Source: Nitrospirota bacterium
GTDB lineage: Bacteria > Nitrospirota > UBA9217
NCBI GenBank assembly: GCA_963796285.1
Contig: CAWCKW010000013.1
Span: forward strand, 224,001-288,000
Length of the DNA stretch: 64,000 bases
Direction of reading: 5' to 3'
Positions within the stretch are counted from its first letter, which is position 1, and each line of letters begins with the position of its first letter. The notes below the pieces were generated by a model, which was not told the origin of the DNA, ran no database searches, and was given only the letters and a program-made list of their open reading frames with translations. Below are positions 45,276 to 53,036 of this stretch, piece after piece. The translations under genes and the position numbers were made by a program.

Positions 45276-45637
45276 TAATTAATATCACCGGGTCAATAAG
45301 AAGATCGCAAGGCCGGGGACAATTCTCCGGCTTTTTCATGCGCGGCAGGTTTATTGTAACATAGAGAAAACAGATCGTATGAGTGCTGATTCCCGAGAAT
45401 CCTTCCACTAATCCGATAATTCTGCCACCCATGCCGACTTTTAAACAATTACTTAATACTGTTTATATCGTGGATTTTATGACATGGTTTTCGAATGATA
45501 ACTTCTTCCTGAACTCATTGAAGTAGCATATCATTGAAACACATCAAGTTACATTCTGTATCTGTTGGAAATCTCTTAAAATACCCCATCGAAAACATTG
45601 ACAAATTTTCATAGCGGTGCTTGTATCTAAGTAGTTC

Positions 45638-45678
45638 TCGATAAAGCCAAACCCTTCGCGAGGGGGGACGGACTGCCC
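45638..45678 (+). ncRNA. Truncated c-di-GMP-I (GEMM) aptamer lacking P3
   Basis: TCGATAAAGCCAAACC-CTTCGCGAGGG-GGGACGGA joined directly to CTGCC. Confidence 0.7.
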
Positions 45679-45791
45679 ATGCTTAGTTCCTTGATATCAG
45701 ACTCCAGGGGAAATCATCGATATCGCTCATCGGAAAAAACCGCGGCTGTGCTTTTTGCAAGGTCGTATCGAATAGAGAGGATACACGCCAT

Positions 45792-46506
45792 ATGAAGCAA
45801 AAGCCCCTTGCATCCTCACCCTCGGGCACACAAGACACGCAGGCAGATGCTTTTTTCTCCTCCTTTTTTGCCGACCCGAAGAAAAATCCCCATTATCGCA
45901 ATCACGTCGAGTTCTATCCGGCCAGGACTGTGATCGTGAGGCAGGAGACATCCCGCGAATGCCGTCTACCTGATCGAGCACGGCTTGGTGAAGCTCGTGA
46001 AGGAAAACTCGAAGGGCATCAAGGTGATCATCGGTCTTCGCCATCGCGACTGGTTGATCGGGGCTCCTACCATTTTCCTTGACAAACCCTATAACTTCAC
46101 GGTCATCGCCTTGCTCCCCACGATGCTTCGCGAGATTCCCAAGGAGGATTTCCTGGAACATATAAAAAAGGACGAACGGTTTTCCCAGCATGTCCAGCGT
46201 GCGCTCAGCCAGCAGGTCTTCGACATGATGAATTGGGTTGAGGCCATGAAATGCCTTTCTGCGGAAAATCGCCTGATGCGTTTTCTGGCCAAAACAGTCC
46301 GTGAGATGGAACCCTTCGGATTAGATAAGCCCGACGGTTTCGCGTTGCCGCTCTCTAATCAGGAACTCGCCCAGCTTCTCATGATTACTGCGGAGCACCT
46401 TTGCCGCGTGCTAAAAAAAATAGAGAATAAGGGCCTCATCAGACATTCAAAGGCGTCGCTGGTCGTGACCGATCCCGCACGCCTCTTTCAGTTGGCCGCT
46501 CACTGA
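45792..46506 (+). CDS. Crp/Fnr family transcriptional regulator (frameshift near 45955)
   Basis: cNMP-like domain (VYLIEHGLVKL), SAENRL, HTH SNQELAQLLMITAEHLCRVL. Confidence 0.85.
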
Positions 46507-46679: not shown

Positions 46680-46756
46680 CTCGATAAAGCCAAACCCGGC
46701 GTGAGGCGGGGACGGAAAGCAACGGATCTTTGAAGACAAGACGGCCGAGCTGCCAA
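46680..46756 (+). ncRNA. c-di-GMP-I (GEMM-I) riboswitch
   Basis: CGATAAAGCCAAACC..GTGA..GGGACGGAAAGC, P3 stem, GCCGAGCTGCC; G at the position equivalent to Vc2 G20. Confidence 0.9.
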
Positions 46757-46784
46757 AGTTCTCAGAATGAGTATTCTGGGAACT
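46757..46784 (+). repeat. dif/Xer-like site 1
   Basis: AGTTCTCAGAA-TGAGTA-TTCTGGGAACT. Confidence 0.75.
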
Positions 46785-46799
46785 TATAAAGGAGAAATT

Positions 46800-47431
46800 A
46801 TGAGAAATTCAGGCACCAGACTTTTACAGTGGTTTTTATTTTTGGCAATTATTGCACTAACCGGATGTGCAAATAATCAACAGGCGTATCAAAAGGCATT
46901 TGATAGTCAACATTCACTTACCCAAAATCAGTGCGCCTTCACGCAGCCGCCTGAAAGTATTTTCAAGATCGTAAAACAAGTATTTATTCAGCAAGGATTC
47001 ACTATTGAAAGCGCAGACTTAAAGTCGGGCATAGTAAAAGCCGTACGAAACATGCAGGATAAGGAAAATCCTGAGATTTCTTACAATATTAGTGCATCAG
47101 CAGATATTTTAGAAGTAACAGGTTCTGAAACAAATGTCTCTTTGGCTTCAAGCCAACAGACAATTCTCCACCGCGCCTCTACTACCTGGTGGCACCTACT
47201 TTGGATCCTACCGATCATTCCTACGGGAACCGAATATCAAACCTTAGTCATCAAGGAAGGCAATATTACTGACCCAGGTTATTATTCCGATTTCTTCAAT
47301 TCTTTGAGAATTGCAGTGACAAAGTATGATTTGGCTGTAAAGGCTGCTGCAAAGGCCGCTGAAAAAGCAAAGGCAGAAAGAGTGCCACCGAAAACGCAGT
47401 GAAGATAAAAGCAGAGACGGAGGCAAAATGA
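46800..47431 (+). CDS. Lipoprotein, DUF2242-like (probable frameshift near 47385; track stop 47402)
   Basis: Lipobox LTGC; VFIQQGFTIESAD; AT-rich codons. Confidence 0.7.
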
Positions 47432-47465
47432 GGTTAGACCTATTTAATGGAGAAAGGAGAAAGCT

Positions 47466-48841
47466 ATGAAGAAAAGATATGATATGCAATTGGTACTGGT
47501 ATTTCTGTTTGTAGCGGCGCTCGCCGCCTGCAGTGGGGGGGGGGAGGTGGCGGGAGTAATAGCACTGCGCCGACAGCGCCGTTTATCACCGCCACGGTAT
47601 ACTACAGCGTGGCCACGGGGACCAATCAATCCGGTAGGCTCCAGGTTGATGTATTTACCGACAGTTCACAGTCAACGCCAATAGCGAACGCCACAGTAAC
47701 CGTAAATGGGACCGCTATCCCCTACAATACTTCAAATGCTCGGTATGAGGGGAACAATTTGTCAATAGACGCGAGTGCTACGGTCAATCTCAGTGTGACC
47801 ATACCCGGAGACGCTACCTACACCGCAACAGGCACCCAATTCACCACATTCCCAAACGTCACTGCTCCTACGTCGGGCGCTACATGGCAGGCAGCCAATG
47901 CCAATACCATCACCTGGACAGCCGGTGCGCCGACCGCAGGTGCAACGTATTTTGTCGGAGTTTTAGACAGTACCGGAAAACTCGTCTATCCTGCAGGGAA
48001 TACTCACCCTCTTAATATCCCTACAAGCTCTACCTCCTATATTATCCCTGCAAGCAGTTTAACGGCGGGAAGTTATTCTGTTTTTGTGGGAATTGGAACA
48101 GCAGGCATAGGCGAATATTCGGGAGGAATACCAATAGCCAACGCGGCTGCCGGTTCGGGTCTATGGATAGGCGGGATTACAGCCTTAGTCCCGATCACTG
48201 TAGGCGCCGGCAGCTCGGCTATCACGGGCCAAGCCGTCGACAAGGCTACGGGCAACCCGATGGCCGGCGTAACCGTCTCCGCCATGGATGCAACATCCCC
48301 CGGCACTGAGCTTTCAACGACGACAACTGACAGCAGCGGGAACTTCACCGCGAGCGTGCCATCGGGTCAAAGCGTTTATTTACATCTGGCCACGAGCGGA
48401 TACGTGAACAAGAACACCCACAATGTCTCTACGACCGGATCGCTGGCGTTTTCCAGCATAAACATGTTCACAACTGCCCAGGGTGTCCAGATCGCGAATG
48501 GACTTGGGCAGTGCCTTAGCGCAACGTCTTGGACCGATCCCTGCATCCAGAACATCGGGTGGGCGAATTTCGGCGCCAAGCTTACGGGCGGCTCGAACGC
48601 GGCAGGAGTTACCATCTCCGCATCGCCATCAGGAACGACGATCGGATACAACAACGGGAGTGGCGTCTATAACGGGGCTTCCACGATAGCCTCTCCGGGA
48701 GGCCTCCCGGCTGCTGCCGGGTACACCAGCACGCAGGCACATTACGCGTTCACCGCGACGAACGGGAGTACAACGATTGGCCCGGTTAACATATGGCTCG
48801 TAAAAGGCGAGCTTGGAGGGTATACCTTCAACGGCTTCTAA
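47466..48841 (+). CDS. Ser/Thr/Gly-rich lipoprotein with carboxypeptidase-regulatory-like domain (out of frame at G10 tract)
   Basis: Lipobox LAAC-SGGG; ITGQAVD..GNPMAGVTVS..TTTDSSGNF. Confidence 0.8.
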
Positions 48842-49011
48842 ATATTATCCTGAACCATAATAAAAAAACCTCCTATGCAGTGTCCCGCGTAGTAGGTTTT
48901 TTATTCATGGTATGCTCCTGAGCCGGAGGGAGTTTCTGAAGTATTCCGTGGTAGCGAGCACTCTTATCGCTGCGGCATAAGGTGTGGGCAATCAATTTAA
49001 GGAGGAAACTC

Positions 49012-49425
49012 ATGAAAAAGATACTGATAATAGCTGTGATAATAGCGCTGACCGCTATTAGTGGAATTGCTTTTGCCGAGGATCTCGTGCAGATCCCCGT
49101 CGCCAAAGAAGCTCTCGTGGGAACATGGGTGGGCGAATGGGATGAGGGTTACAACGTGAAAGGGAAACACCTTTCTGGTGAAGTTGAGATAATTTTTAAT
49201 AACACAGATTCTTTTGACTACGCCAGCAGCAAAAAGAAATTTACAGGCAAGATAGTAGACATATCCTCCGAAAAAATCGAACTGACCGACGGCAAATCCA
49301 GGACCGACAGCTACAAAATGTACAAGGACGCCAATGGGAATTTGGTGCTCAAGGGCACCTATTCCGATACCAGTCCAAGTAAGGGATTCAAAAGGGGAGA
49401 AATTATTGTGAAAAAGAAGCCCTAA
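49012..49425 (+). CDS. Secreted hypothetical protein
   Basis: RBS GGAGG, signal peptide ending AFA, LVGTWVGEW beta-barrel-like start. Confidence 0.8.
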   Translation: MKKILIIAVIIALTAISGIAFAEDLVQIPVAKEALVGTWVGEWDEGYNVKGKHLSGEVEIIFNNTDSFDYASSKKKFTGKIVDISSEKIELTDGKSRTDSYKMYKDANGNLVLKGTYSDTSPSKGFKRGEIIVKKKP

Positions 49426-49445
49426 CAACACATGTCTTCCGGAAC

Positions 49446-49484
49446 TTCAAAACCCCTGCCGCTCTTTGCGCAGGGGTTTTTGAA
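49446..49484. terminator. Bidirectional terminator closing the first module
   Basis: ttcaaaacccctgc...gcaggggtttttgaa, ending 6 bp before site 2. Confidence 0.75.
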
Positions 49485-49490
49485 ATCACC

Positions 49491-49518
49491 AGTGCCCAGA
49501 ATGAGTATTATGGGAACT
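49491..49518 (+). repeat. dif/Xer-like site 2
   Basis: AGTGCCCAGAA-TGAGTA-TTATGGGAACT. Confidence 0.75.
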
Positions 49519-49637
49519 TCAAAAGAAAGGAGGTAATGTTAAAAAATGCAGGTCGAAAGAAGGGCGTTTTGCTTCAAATATTCTATTCGGGCCTGGAGCT
49601 AGGAAAACTCTAGGCACTCTGTCAAGGAGGAAACGCC

Positions 49638-52274
49638 ATGGAAAATGGAAACAGTTGGGCAAAGACAGCCGGCTCATTCGTTATTTTCATTCTTTTCCTT
49701 GTGGCTTCATCTTTTCTGCCTTCATGCGGAGGAGGCGGTGGCGGCGGTGGCGGGGCACCCGCGCCAGCCCCGCCAGCCGCGCCAGCCTCTGTGACGGCTG
49801 ATGCAGGGAACGGCCAGGTCACCATCAGCTGGGATGCGTCTACCGGGGCCACCTCGTACAACATTTACTACAGCACGCTCCCCGGTGTCACCAAGACCAG
49901 CGGCACCAGGGTCACTGGGGCCGTAAGCCCAATGGACGTCACCGGCCTCACCAATGGAACCACCTACTACTTCGTGGTAACGGCGGTGAACGCCAACGGC
50001 GAGAGCGCCGAATCCATCCAGATCTCCGGCACCCCCTCCGCGTCTCCACCGCCGGCAGCCCCCATCGGGGTCAATGCAACGGCCGGTGATGGTCAGGTGA
50101 TCGTGAGCTGGACTGCCGCTGCTGACGCGACATCTTACAACATCTACTGGTCGACTACATCTGGTGTTACGAAGACCAACGGCACAAAGATCACCGGTGT
50201 CAGCAGTCCGTATACGCATACAAGCAGGACAAACGGGACAACCTATTTCTATGTTGTCACTGCTGGTAATTCTTTCGGAGAGAGTGTGGAATCGGCTCAG
50301 GTATCGGCGACACCGATCGCAACGACTCTCTCCTTGCAGACGATTGCTGTAACTTCCGATAAGGTCGCGGTCGAATGGGGAATCAACCCGCAGTTTATCG
50401 CCACCGGGAGTTACAGCGACGGGTCAACAAAAGACCTGACGGCCACGGTTCTGTGGAGTTCCACAAACTCGGCGGTGGCGATCGTGGATGCCACCGGCAT
50501 CGTGACCACGAGAGGAACCGGCAGTACGACAATTCAAGCAGCCTCGGGTTCCGTCATCGGCTCCGCCACGTTGACCGTTACTTCCCCGGGGCACTTTCTA
50601 TTGAAGAATGTCGGGCTATGGACCCAATTCGACCGCCGTGGCTATTCTGACGGGTACTATGGTGGCGAGATCATTCAAATGTGGGACCAAATCGATTGGG
50701 TGACGGGCAGCATCGTCTCGCAGGAAGTATCGCTCCAGCTCGACAAGATGAAGGCCATGGGAGTAAACGTAATCACCTATCAGTTTCGCGGAGCCGATAA
50801 TTCCGATGAGCTCTTCACATATCCCGATTGCAACATCGCACCGGTGCTGGGCCTCCAATTCCCCCAACCGACGGCAACGGAACTTGCGAACCTGCCACGT
50901 TTCTTCGACATGGTGCAGAGCAAAGGAATGAAGGTGTGGTTGAGTCTGATCAACACGCATATGGAGGAGCAGCCCCCGACCAATTCTCAGACATGGTTGG
51001 GGGCTATTTTGGGGGCCATCGGCAATCATCCGGCGCTTGACCTGGTACTCCTAGATGGTAGTGCACATTGGATCCAGGATATGACTAGTCCGACAGGCAC
51101 AACGTGCGGCACCCAGGCTGAGGCGATGCTATACCAAGGGAATGACTCCATCCCTGCTAAGTACGTGCAGTGGGCGATCGGTTTTGCGATGTCGCAGGGC
51201 ATCCCCGCCCGGAAGCTCTCTGCTGAAGCCATCGTCGGCGATTTCTTCGTGGATAGCATGCCGCCGGCCGGATACGAAGCCACCGATGGCCATCTGTGGC
51301 CTACGACCCCTGTTTTAAAAAAGATTTTCGATAACCTCAACATACCCGCGAGCGAGCGGACTTACGCGTTGTCCCTCTACGAGCACTGGAAATGCTCGTC
51401 CGCGCAATCGCTCCCATGTACCGACCTGAACCCTCACGACTGGGCCGACCAGACCTTACAAAATGTGATCAGCGTGGTGGGCAGCGGTCCGAGGATTGTG
51501 ATCCCGGAAATGGGCGTCATGAACCCCGTGGACCGGGTGAACTGGAATACACAACATGCACTCGAAAGCCTTGTCTTCCTCATGCAAAAACACGGCATAG
51601 ACAGTGGCTCATTCTGGCAATGGGTGGCTTCTGACAACGATAAAGATTCCGATCCGACCCAGTCCGATCCGGTGAAACGACGGGGCGTAGAGTTCATCTA
51701 CACCCCGGTGCAGAAGGAAGTCGTCGACATGGGCGGCTTCCACGTACCGGTGGTACCCAACGGTTCCTTCGAAGATACGATCGTCAACAGTGTGCCGGTG
51801 AACTGGATCAAGGCAGGCAACGGCACGGTTTCCCAGTATCTGTTGACACAGGAATCAGGTCAACCCGAAGTGCCTTCGCGAGGCACGCACGCGATGCGGA
51901 TCGTCACCGGCAGTGGACCAAACGATAATATTTCTGCGACAAGTGCCATGATCCCGGTTATCGCCGCGACCACCTACACGACAACGGCAAACATGCGTTT
52001 TGCCTGGACCGGGGACCCCAGCCCGGGCGGTTCGTCTGCATCTCGCCCACAGGTGTTCATCAACATTCTTTATTTTCAACAGAACGGGACCCCATCAGGT
52101 GTAACCACAAAGGATTTGTTCTCGTTCTTCCAGGAGGACAGCACGACCGGATTCGCCACTTTCCCGCAACAGTACACGACGCCGAGCGATGCGGCATTCG
52201 TCGAGGTCCAGTTCGGCGCCATGCGGAACGGGTTACCAACACAGATTACCCTGGATGTTGATAATGTCCGATAA
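49638..52274 (+). CDS. Large lipoprotein: 2x FN3, Big_2 Ig-like, glycoside-hydrolase-like barrel, CBM-like C-terminus
   Basis: LPSCGGGG lipobox; duplicated FN3 (SYNIY..NGTTY.YVVTA); QFIATGSYSDGS; KMKAMGVNVI, VIPEMG; VPNGSFE. Confidence 0.8.
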   Translation: MENGNSWAKTAGSFVIFILFLVASSFLPSCGGGGGGGGGAPAPAPPAAPASVTADAGNGQVTISWDASTGATSYNIYYSTLPGVTKTSGTRVTGAVSPMDVTGLTNGTTYYFVVTAVNANGESAESIQISGTPSASPPPAAPIGVNATAGDGQVIVSWTAAADATSYNIYWSTTSGVTKTNGTKITGVSSPYTHTSRTNGTTYFYVVTAGNSFGESVESAQVSATPIATTLSLQTIAVTSDKVAVEWGINPQFIATGSYSDGSTKDLTATVLWSSTNSAVAIVDATGIVTTRGTGSTTIQAASGSVIGSATLTVTSPGHFLLKNVGLWTQFDRRGYSDGYYGGEIIQMWDQIDWVTGSIVSQEVSLQLDKMKAMGVNVITYQFRGADNSDELFTYPDCNIAPVLGLQFPQPTATELANLPRFFDMVQSKGMKVWLSLINTHMEEQPPTNSQTWLGAILGAIGNHPALDLVLLDGSAHWIQDMTSPTGTTCGTQAEAMLYQGNDSIPAKYVQWAIGFAMSQGIPARKLSAEAIVGDFFVDSMPPAGYEATDGHLWPTTPVLKKIFDNLNIPASERTYALSLYEHWKCSSAQSLPCTDLNPHDWADQTLQNVISVVGSGPRIVIPEMGVMNPVDRVNWNTQHALESLVFLMQKHGIDSGSFWQWVASDNDKDSDPTQSDPVKRRGVEFIYTPVQKEVVDMGGFHVPVVPNGSFEDTIVNSVPVNWIKAGNGTVSQYLLTQESGQPEVPSRGTHAMRIVTGSGPNDNISATSAMIPVIAATTYTTTANMRFAWTGDPSPGGSSASRPQVFINILYFQQNGTPSGVTTKDLFSFFQEDSTTGFATFPQQYTTPSDAAFVEVQFGAMRNGLPTQITLDVDNVR

Positions 52275-52554
52275 GGCGGGTAGAAAAACCGGATTAGTCT
52301 TGTGAATGCGTGAAGGGGCGGAGGTTTCTTTCTACTCTCCGTCCCTTCTCATTCCGTAGGCTAACTATACAGCCTTGGCCCTGATACATTAACAAATCTC
52401 TCAGGTTCCATTCCACTAATAACGCTGCAAAAGCAATAACGCAATATAAGTGAATCAACGATGAACTAGTTAAAAAAAGGAGCAGACACTGCTCCACGGT
52501 AAACCCGGGAGGGATTTGGTCCAATAACCATGTCCCTCCTTTTCTGAAAGCTCC

Positions 52555-52582
52555 ATTTCCCAGAATGGGTATTCTGGGAACA
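52555..52582 (+). repeat. dif/Xer-like site 3
   Basis: ATTTCCCAGAA-TGGGTA-TTCTGGGAACA. Confidence 0.72.
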
Positions 52583-53036
52583 ATCCAAATCATTACACTT
52601 GCCCAGGTGGGCAAAGACGCCCATCTGGATTTTTTAACGCTATATTTTTTAACCTTGTCTGAATGATTTCTCGAACGGTCTTAATGCACTCGGCAGGAGG
52701 TCCGCGTTATGTGCAAGATCAATCCGTATTCGATGATAGTTTCATTCTCTTGAAATTACTGAGTAGTAGAAATCAACAAGTACAGGCCTACTGCCTGATG
52801 AAAGATTGCAAGCCGAATTCGCAATAAACCGATCAAGACTACACACGCAGCCAGAGTCTAAGAATAGAATATATTAGACGTTATCGATACCTATGACAAA
52901 ACCATCCCCTGACAGTACTTGCCGCAGCGCTCAGATGAGATGCGCTGCGGCGAAAAGTTAACTACTCAAGACCGCGGTGATACAGTGTATTTTTCTTAAA
53001 GATCCGTCCCCTTCGTAGAATTTAGCGGCAACGGAT

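Follow-up and report, generated by a model that had tools for sequence, protein, structure and literature searches.

Repressor operators that overlap the core promoters of dispersed regulons are known in bacteria, as with the Fur boxes, where the small RNA RyhB is included, and the LexA boxes. Promoter reuse in prokaryotes is described in the accessible part of PMC3575422, where near-identical promoter segments found before unrelated genes are termed 'putative mobile promoters'. The accessible part of PMC13141974 describes pdif sites, which are carried on plasmids, resemble dif, and combine distinct XerC and XerD arms with variable 6-bp spacers in alternating orientation (C/D, D/C). Here we describe a palindromic element that occurs three times in a 64,000-nucleotide stretch of the genome of an uncultured Nitrospirota bacterium. 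The stretch, referred to as the window, covers positions 224001-288000 of contig C13 (CAWCKW010000013.1) in a 3.58 Mb assembly of 13 contigs (GCA_963796285.1, hereafter G000). An initial annotation of the window had interpreted the three copies as dif/Xer-like sites bounding gene cassettes. The comparisons reported below indicate that they are probably copies of a promoter with an embedded operator, one of which precedes a candidate small RNA.

The three 28-mers are located where the initial annotation had placed them, at 46757, 49491 and 52555 on the + strand and 2734 and 3064 bp apart. All are intergenic and share the same orientation. Their division into 11-bp arms and a 6-bp spacer was not retained, as the natural symmetric unit is a 24-bp palindrome comprising two 10-bp arms and an asymmetric 4-bp centre (TTCCCAGAAT GAGT ATTCTGGGAA). 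A degenerate 24-mer with up to three mismatches matched these three sites in the window and none besides, whereas 100 shuffles gave an expectation of 0.00; the sites are thus real and above chance. The sites and the predicted RNA downstream of the third are as follows.

46759 to 46782, + strand: site 1, palindrome TTCTCAGAAT GAGT ATTCTGGGAA, with a poor upstream box (CTGCCA)
49478 to 49517, + strand: site 2, box TTTTGAAATCACCAG, palindrome TGCCCAGAAT GAGT ATTATGGGAA (49493-49516), then C; 54.6 bits with the box
52542 to 52581, + strand: site 3, box TTCTGAAAGCTCCAT, palindrome TTCCCAGAAT GGGT ATTCTGGGAA (52557-52580), then C; 51.2 bits with the box
52580 to 52635, + strand: predicted small RNA of ~55 nt with a putative 5' end, a 10-bp GC-rich hairpin (52603-52628) and a U-run

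Site 1 scores 46.6 bits as a palindrome alone and 29.2 bits when the upstream box is included. The centres of sites 2 and 3 differ (GAGT vs GGGT). The complete G000 genome contains one further copy of the palindrome, on the minus strand at C6:102401, upstream of a gene for a small Cys-rich protein; the orthologous position keeps the site in G001 and at locus L065. With a cut-off of 18 bits, a weight matrix derived from the relatives and including the upstream box recovered the same four G000 sites, and the control gave no match. A weight-matrix search of G000 above 8 bits yielded 25 matches, reverse readings included, vs 6 in the control.

Among 61 related genomes, a search with the 20-mer core and at most two mismatches identified 40 copies in 15 genomes, in the same orientation as the window sites; the backwards-read control gave 4 matches. 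Motif-bearing genomes account for 13 of the 36 in the same family and for 8 of 37 genera. Most copies (27/40) have no partner within 10 kb, and one genome (G034) carries nine copies over three contigs on both strands. Lone copies before unrelated genes, here in at least 8 genera, were the pattern that the initial annotation itself had named as speaking against recombination sites. In a species-level genome collection an exact 17-mer matched at least 117 stretches, where by our own arithmetic ~70 are expected by chance. Among the matches listed, the full palindrome is present in 25 loci, all titled Nitrospirota, Nitrospiraceae or Thermodesulfovibrionales, and the others listed lie in coding sequence of unrelated phyla. 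Two weaker copies, 490 bp apart, were also seen in L115, titled as a delta proteobacterium metagenome-assembled genome; this could reflect a mis-binned contig, or the motif may be distributed more widely.

The anatomy of the element was counted over 37 distinct copies, after seven loci were dropped (four non-Nitrospirota records and the doubtful L068, L115 and L130). A one-sided box, TTTTGTARACA, extends from -15 to -5 of the palindrome, and nothing is conserved beyond -15. The most conserved upstream positions are A at -2 (33 of 37) and A at -9 (31), followed by T at -12 and A at -5 (27 each), C at -6 (25) and G at -11 (23). The centre GAGT, which is not palindromic, is conserved in 34-37 of the 37 copies. 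Two promoter registers fit these elements, TTGTAR-17 nt-GAGTAT and TARACA-17 nt-TATTCT, and locus L009 has a perfect TTGACA in the second. Either register predicts a start at the right edge of the palindrome. Each of the 37 copies faces its downstream feature. A rule-based assignment found 16 gene-type sites with a Shine-Dalgarno sequence and an open reading frame (ORF) starting 1-38 nt downstream, or 13-38 nt when the doubtful L145 is left out. The remainder comprise 10 copies of small-RNA type, 3 with an AATCATT box but no terminator, and 8 'other'. Inspection by eye modifies this count slightly: the small-RNA call at L018 is really a 57-aa ORF, the gene call at L145 is doubtful, and several of the 'other' copies, site 2 included, have a Shine-Dalgarno sequence within 25 nt. 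The downstream genes are mutually unrelated and encode, among others, lipoproteins, rubredoxin-like and rhodanese-like proteins, a PAS hybrid histidine kinase, a STAS protein, patatin-like and cytidylate-kinase-like proteins and small zinc-ribbon proteins. The element thus keeps the same place and direction with respect to the -35/-10-like elements and the gene, as in a promoter with an overlapping operator, and it recurs at unlinked loci before unrelated genes and across species, as a regulon motif does. Neighbouring copies within one genome share the box as well (14 identical nt in G006; also in G004, in G016 and between sites 2 and 3 of G000), therefore the whole promoter of ~45 bp appears to have been copied.

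The observed sites, with their conservation, position, orientation, flanking terminators and small-RNA architecture, are most readily combined in one reading, to which we assign a probability of about two in three. The sites would represent a promoter shared by a regulon, with an embedded palindromic operator for a trans-acting regulator, that has been copied in an accessory island and in one instance drives a small RNA. The -35-like box would lie 5-15 nt upstream of the palindrome and the -10-like hexamer in its centre or right arm. Transcription would then start at the right edge of the palindrome and leave 5' leaders of ~10-38 nt. A dimeric regulator, encoded elsewhere, would bind to the two 10-bp arms; because its position there, from about -25 to +1, would obstruct RNA polymerase, it would most likely be a repressor. 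At site 3 the transcript would be the small RNA, ~55 nt in length and closed by an intrinsic terminator. The plastic accessory island would thus hold three adjacent units of the same regulon, all transcribed in one direction, and the three direct repeats would arise because such units adjoin and because the ~45-bp promoter, box included, is copied upon gene gain.

The feature is ordinary in kind; what is new is a regulon motif of Nitrospirota and a candidate small RNA. If the operator-promoter reading is correct, a sharp regulon motif joins surface lipoproteins, redox-type small proteins, signalling proteins and a small RNA. The locus resembles the Fur/RyhB and LexA regulons in that the palindrome overlaps the predicted -10 element and start of many unlinked promoters, that it is found across genera, and that one predicted target is a terminator-ended small RNA. 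It differs from them in that no autoregulation was seen in the neighbourhood of the sites. The palindrome is unlike any operator that we could name, and we know of no described regulators or small RNAs for this uncultured Nitrospirota family. Literature searches with the palindrome arm as a bacterial repressor site returned only primers and STAT sites, and those on Thermodesulfovibrionia small RNAs or promoters returned none. As with the mobile promoters in the accessible part of PMC3575422, neighbouring copies share ~45 bp including the box; unlike the segments described there, the core is also conserved in at least 8 genera as a regulatory motif and not just in recent copies.

The candidate small RNA at site 3 appears to be new. 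Its 5' part is a conserved, single-stranded segment of ~20 nt (CAAAUCAUUACACUU), followed by the hairpin, at which a terminator-like site was found. The predicted fold has an energy of -33.5 kcal/mol (z -4.75). Besides that of the window, copies were seen at L014, L025, L009, L021, L012, L017, L043 and L066. In an alignment of nine copies the 5' 20 nt are conserved, changes in the 10-bp stem are one-sided throughout, without a compensatory pair, and leave the stem intact, and the loops vary. The copies are always located behind a palindrome-bearing promoter. A putative promoter of its own, an unpaired region and a GC hairpin with a U-run are the predicted components expected of a trans-acting small RNA with an intrinsic terminator, and site 3 was assigned to the small-RNA type. 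Searches of Rfam 15 matched neither the palindrome nor the small RNA to a family at E <= 5; only the riboswitch described below was matched. A second group of palindrome-driven, non-coding starts (L024/L039 in G003, L026/L038 in G005, L037 and L030) carries the box CGAATCATT(A/T)CTGGC.TA.ATATTTC and has no nearby terminator. These may be a paralogous RNA or long leaders, and some of them lie upstream of a PAS hybrid kinase gene that carries its own weaker palindrome.

In the window, the sites are interspersed with the following features; module 1 denotes the segment between sites 1 and 2, and module 2 that between sites 2 and 3.

45637 to 45681, + strand: truncated second copy of the c-di-GMP-I-GGC aptamer, 24.5 bits, E 0.004, 37 model positions missing
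46680 to 46758, + strand: c-di-GMP-I-GGC riboswitch aptamer (RF03167), 64.8 bits (gathering 59), E 1e-14, model positions 1-80
46800 to 47402, + strand: gene of a 200-aa lipoprotein, lipobox LTGC, no Pfam family, AAAGGAG 7 nt before the ATG
47466 to 48841, + strand: secreted protein with a CarboxypepD_reg domain, split in the window into ORFs of 72 aa (signal peptide) and 410 aa
48982 to 49425, + strand: 147-aa secreted protein; in relatives a riboswitch precedes it instead
49449 to 49480, + strand: terminator hairpin and U-run at the end of module 1, -20.9 kcal/mol, z -3.89
49536 to 49613, + strand: small ORF of 25 codons, with AAAGGAGG, 18 nt past the C adjoining site 2, read directly
49638 to 52274, + strand: 878-aa lipoprotein with two fn3 domains, Big_2 domains and a large C-terminal part
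52507 to 52540, + strand: terminator hairpin and U-run at the end of module 2, -21.2 kcal/mol, z -3.58

Sites 2 and 3 are each directly 3' of a terminator, that before site 2 closing module 1 as the initial annotation had stated, and the products encoded between the sites are lipoproteins or secreted proteins, also as read there. Site 1 adjoins the full aptamer without a spacer, so that the aptamer ends where the -35-like box would be expected, and the start codon of the 200-aa lipoprotein is 17 nt past the C adjoining its palindrome. The proposal that the sites delimit units is sound to the extent that every site has a terminator or riboswitch before it and a gene or small RNA after it, and for this reason each site is taken to head a transcription unit; the extension to a cassette array moved by Xer is mostly not supported by the comparisons given below. 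The 25-codon ORF behind site 2 may encode a leader peptide, or it may be what is left of a former gene start. No full-length homologue of the 878-aa lipoprotein was found among 60 relatives, where matches span only about residues 9-320, and its gene is accessory on that ground.

Several results weigh against an operator-bearing promoter. A generic sigma-70 scan lists none of the three window sites; the hexamers are weak and two registers fit. Site 1 has no box and is fused to a riboswitch aptamer, and site 3 has a G where the GAGTAT register needs an A. The 37 sites include paralogous copies and the counts are thus not independent. The gain or loss of module 2 breaks inside the palindrome, and Xer-like recombinase genes are found near small-RNA copies in relatives; both are described below. 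Finally, neither Crp/Fnr co-occurrence nor a Pfam neighbourhood tally identified a cognate regulator. The tally compared 145 ORFs within 3.5 kb of the sites with Pfam, leaving out ORFs shorter than 70 aa, longer than 330 aa or overlapping longer ones and 13 redundant 3-kb loci, and it showed no recurrent DNA-binding family (ArsR 2, HTH_17 2, sigma region 4 2). In this tally and in the Crp/Fnr check no copy was seen before a regulator gene, hence no autoregulation was seen. The Crp/Fnr-type gene beside site 1, which the truncated aptamer precedes, was considered as the binder and rejected, as a homologue of at least 47% identity is present in only 3 of 14 motif-bearing relatives (at this level it occurs in G001, G003, G005 and G010 only, the last of which is without the motif). 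In the window this gene (45792-46506, + strand) is split over two frames, and contigs from public runs X1, X6 and X9 are one base short at 45950; the split is either a strain frameshift or an assembly error.

Module content does vary with breaks at the sites, a check that the initial annotation had proposed. Module 2 is absent from the closest relative (G004, 90-95% identical in the shared parts) and from environmental contigs, with the junction inside or next to the palindrome. The 878-aa gene is missing from G004, where a single palindrome joins the sequence left of site 2 to that right of site 3, small RNA included; this arrangement is present twice. Public runs were compared through the assembled contigs of X1, X5, X6 and X9 (21 runs listed, share at most 0.17), and parts of module 2 that remain uncovered there are not counted as evidence. 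The joined form was found in X1 (49455->52545) and X5 (49504->52569). No joint running backwards between sites, as from a circle, was listed for these assembled contigs, a form of data that would not show one. Since G004 and these two joints agree and the 878-aa protein has no full-length homologue, sequence comparison indicates that module 2 is a strain-level gain or loss with seams in the repeat. The other 3 of the 5 long joints are located at copies of the riboswitch aptamer (45664->46708, 45667->46712 and 45667->48919). Therefore, any repeated regulatory element in the island can serve as a seam, as ordinary short-repeat recombination predicts. Run X6 covers the aptamer very deeply, at a mean word depth of 426 in the bin concerned, and the aptamer is therefore multi-copy or widespread there. 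The gene directly upstream of the small RNA varies among genomes and encodes 878 aa in G000, 147 aa in G004, 162 aa in G006 and 333 aa in G016. Repeated regulatory elements, here promoter-operator copies and c-di-GMP-I-GGC aptamers, would thus mark the seams of a plastic island and can mimic site-specific cassette systems.

The similarity to dif does not distinguish the sites. Site 2 matches E. coli dif at 20/28, as had been reported, but it is one of six places in the genome that reach this value, and sites 1 and 3 match the quoted E. coli dif at 18/28 and 16/28. When compared with the dif candidate of G000 itself, the three sites agree at 18, 18 and 17 of 28 positions, levels that 78 (at least 18) and 376 (at least 17) other genomic 28-mers also attain; because so many others score equally, the likeness is at chance level. 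That candidate, a canonical dif-like 28-mer at C12:786711-786738 (ATGACTGATAA TGTATA TTATGTAAACT), is 2.2 kb from the C12 cumulative GC-skew peak at 788,876 and is likely the true dif of this genome. The skew of C13 is monotonic across the region, at variance with a single terminus dif site, and the symmetric 10-4-10 arms are not the distinct XerC and XerD 11-bp arms around a 6-bp centre of a dif-like site. G000 has five tyrosine recombinase matches (PF00589), all on C12 or C3, including two full Xer-like genes on C12. The statement that no Xer recombinase is encoded in the window holds for the whole of contig C13, on which no tyrosine recombinase was found.

As in the Acinetobacter pdif modules, to the extent covered by the accessible part of PMC13141974, sites of ~28 bp bound gene modules whose content differs in relatives with junctions in the sites, although junctions at the riboswitch are as frequent (3/5 long joints). 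Unlike the pdif sites described there, the window sites have symmetric arms, a conserved centre and chance-level dif similarity, and are direct, chromosomal copies with no alternation of orientation. The locus resembles integron arrays in that a variable gene lies upstream of a fixed unit that ends, in some relatives, with a tyrosine recombinase gene. Unlike integrons, it has no intI-type integrase and no attC-like sites, the cassettes are not promoterless, as each module has its own promoter-like element and terminator, and the recombinase is missing where the arrays are.

Tyrosine recombinase ORFs are the most recurrent neighbours of the sites in relatives (13 ORFs in 10 loci, partly redundant). 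Recombinase ORFs or fragments are present 0.3-0.45 kb downstream of 5 of the 9 small-RNA copies, intact in L034:9132-10385 (G008) and L066:4322-5407 and fragmentary in L036 and L033 (twice in G016, once in G006), and the spacer between the small RNA and the recombinase gene is conserved. These recombinases score 35-63 bits, compared with integron cut-offs of 265-435, and are also far under the XerC, XerD and XerA cut-offs. Recombinase genes occur within 3 kb of only two gene-type sites, in one case on the opposite strand, and the recombinase appears to go with the small RNA, not with the palindrome. By eye, the similarity between linked and unlinked small-RNA copies stops right after the U-run, which suggests integration at the 3' end of the small RNA. 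Some integrases target the 3' ends of tRNA, tmRNA or small-RNA genes, and a recombinase gene or relic ~0.3-0.45 kb past the small-RNA terminator in G008, L066, G016 and G006 is in keeping with these. Unlike such integrases, no attR was evident, as searches for a second partial small-RNA copy in G008, G016, G006, G004 and G000 gave only chance-level short matches, and in G008 housekeeping genes follow directly after the recombinase. G000 and G004, which have the arrays, are without the extra recombinase. In G008 a 1199-aa ORF (L034:3491-7090, - strand), by eye a reverse transcriptase-Cas1 fusion, lies 1.7 kb upstream of the palindrome/small-RNA unit.

These data bear on the alternative that the palindrome is the core site of a Xer-like tyrosine recombinase, with the modules as inserted and excised cassettes and perhaps a promoter function in addition. 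Inverted arms around a 4-6-bp centre have the shape of a simple core site, and the G004 arrangement, the X1 and X5 joints, the variable gene upstream of the small RNA and the Xer-like ORFs or fragments by 5/9 small-RNA copies would all follow. However, 27/40 copies stand alone and are scattered over both strands, where an active recombinase would cause large deletions and inversions of the chromosome, and a fixed box, orientation and distance to the start codon are not expected of attachment sites. Moreover, the centres of sites 2 and 3 differ, most of the long joints fall at riboswitch copies and not at palindromes, the recombinase tracks the small RNA and is missing from the array genomes, and a canonical dif candidate is found elsewhere. 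We consider this alternative unlikely. The integron-like array moved by Xer that the initial annotation had proposed is mostly not supported, on these grounds: the lone copies, the invariant box, orientation and start distance, the dif candidate on another contig, the chance-level dif likeness, direct copies that unlike pdif sites have symmetric arms and a conserved centre, breaks that fall equally at aptamers, and the lack of the extra recombinase in G000 and G004. A combination of the two readings, in which the palindrome serves both as an operator-bearing promoter core and as the crossover site of a small Xer-like recombinase, with genes captured upstream of the small-RNA gene, seems to us quite improbable. 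It would amount to integron-like gene capture in uncultured Nitrospirota that puts each new cassette under regulon control, and would be a real surprise.

Two further alternatives retain the position of the element and differ from the operator-promoter reading in what recognizes it. The box and GAGTAT/GGGTAT could form a promoter for an alternative sigma factor of the general-stress type, with no separate repressor and an incidental dyad. GGGTAT-type -10 elements mark sigma-B/F promoters; the asymmetric centre and the box are strictly conserved, and the gene set is heterogeneous and stress-like (rubredoxin-like, rhodanese, a STAS antagonist in at least 3 loci, PAS kinase). Nonetheless, sigma recognition leaves unexplained a perfect 10-bp dyad kept in 37 sites, and sigma region 4 was found in only 2 of the 145 neighbouring ORFs. 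An autoregulated STAS operon of the rsbV-rsbW-sigB type was also considered and rejected, as L078 has neither a sigma factor nor an anti-sigma kinase after STAS. We regard a sigma promoter of this kind as very unlikely. The element could instead act as RNA: the leaders and the small RNA would each begin with a hairpin of 10-13 bp that affects stability, processing or protein binding and that, at site 1, serves as the expression platform of the riboswitch. Sites 1 and 3 do fold well (-14.0 kcal/mol, z -5.1, and -13.4 kcal/mol, z -3.6), site 1 directly follows the aptamer with zero spacer, and position 3 of the left arm is a T opposite G in 20 sites, which would be a wobble pair in RNA. However, the fold of site 2 is weak (-6.1 kcal/mol, z -1.7) and the covariation is no better than in shuffles. 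With the arms aligned as a stem, 93.0% of the cells pair vs 92.5 +/- 0.3 after shuffling (a value reached in 85 of the 500 shuffles), a single change affects both sides, and 26/370 cells are unpaired without compensation, a comparison that is weak alone as the arms vary little. In many copies the U-run of a terminator is directly upstream of the box, so that a promoter from which the complete hairpin could be transcribed would not fit, and nothing upstream of -15 is conserved. An RNA function of the palindrome is thus highly improbable in our view. The arms appear to be two independently conserved half-sites and not an RNA stem, which suits the dimeric DNA-binding protein of the operator-promoter reading.

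The base composition of the island varies gene by gene (GC about 0.41, 0.57, 0.45 and 0.56-0.60), also within module 1 and not just across the sites. The interior of module 1 contains a terminator-like site at 48873-48892 and a seam relative to the relatives at 48919. The 72-aa and 410-aa ORFs of the CarboxypepD_reg protein appear to belong to a single gene that a 2-base difference has split at 47601, where the contigs of X1 and X9 have two bases fewer.

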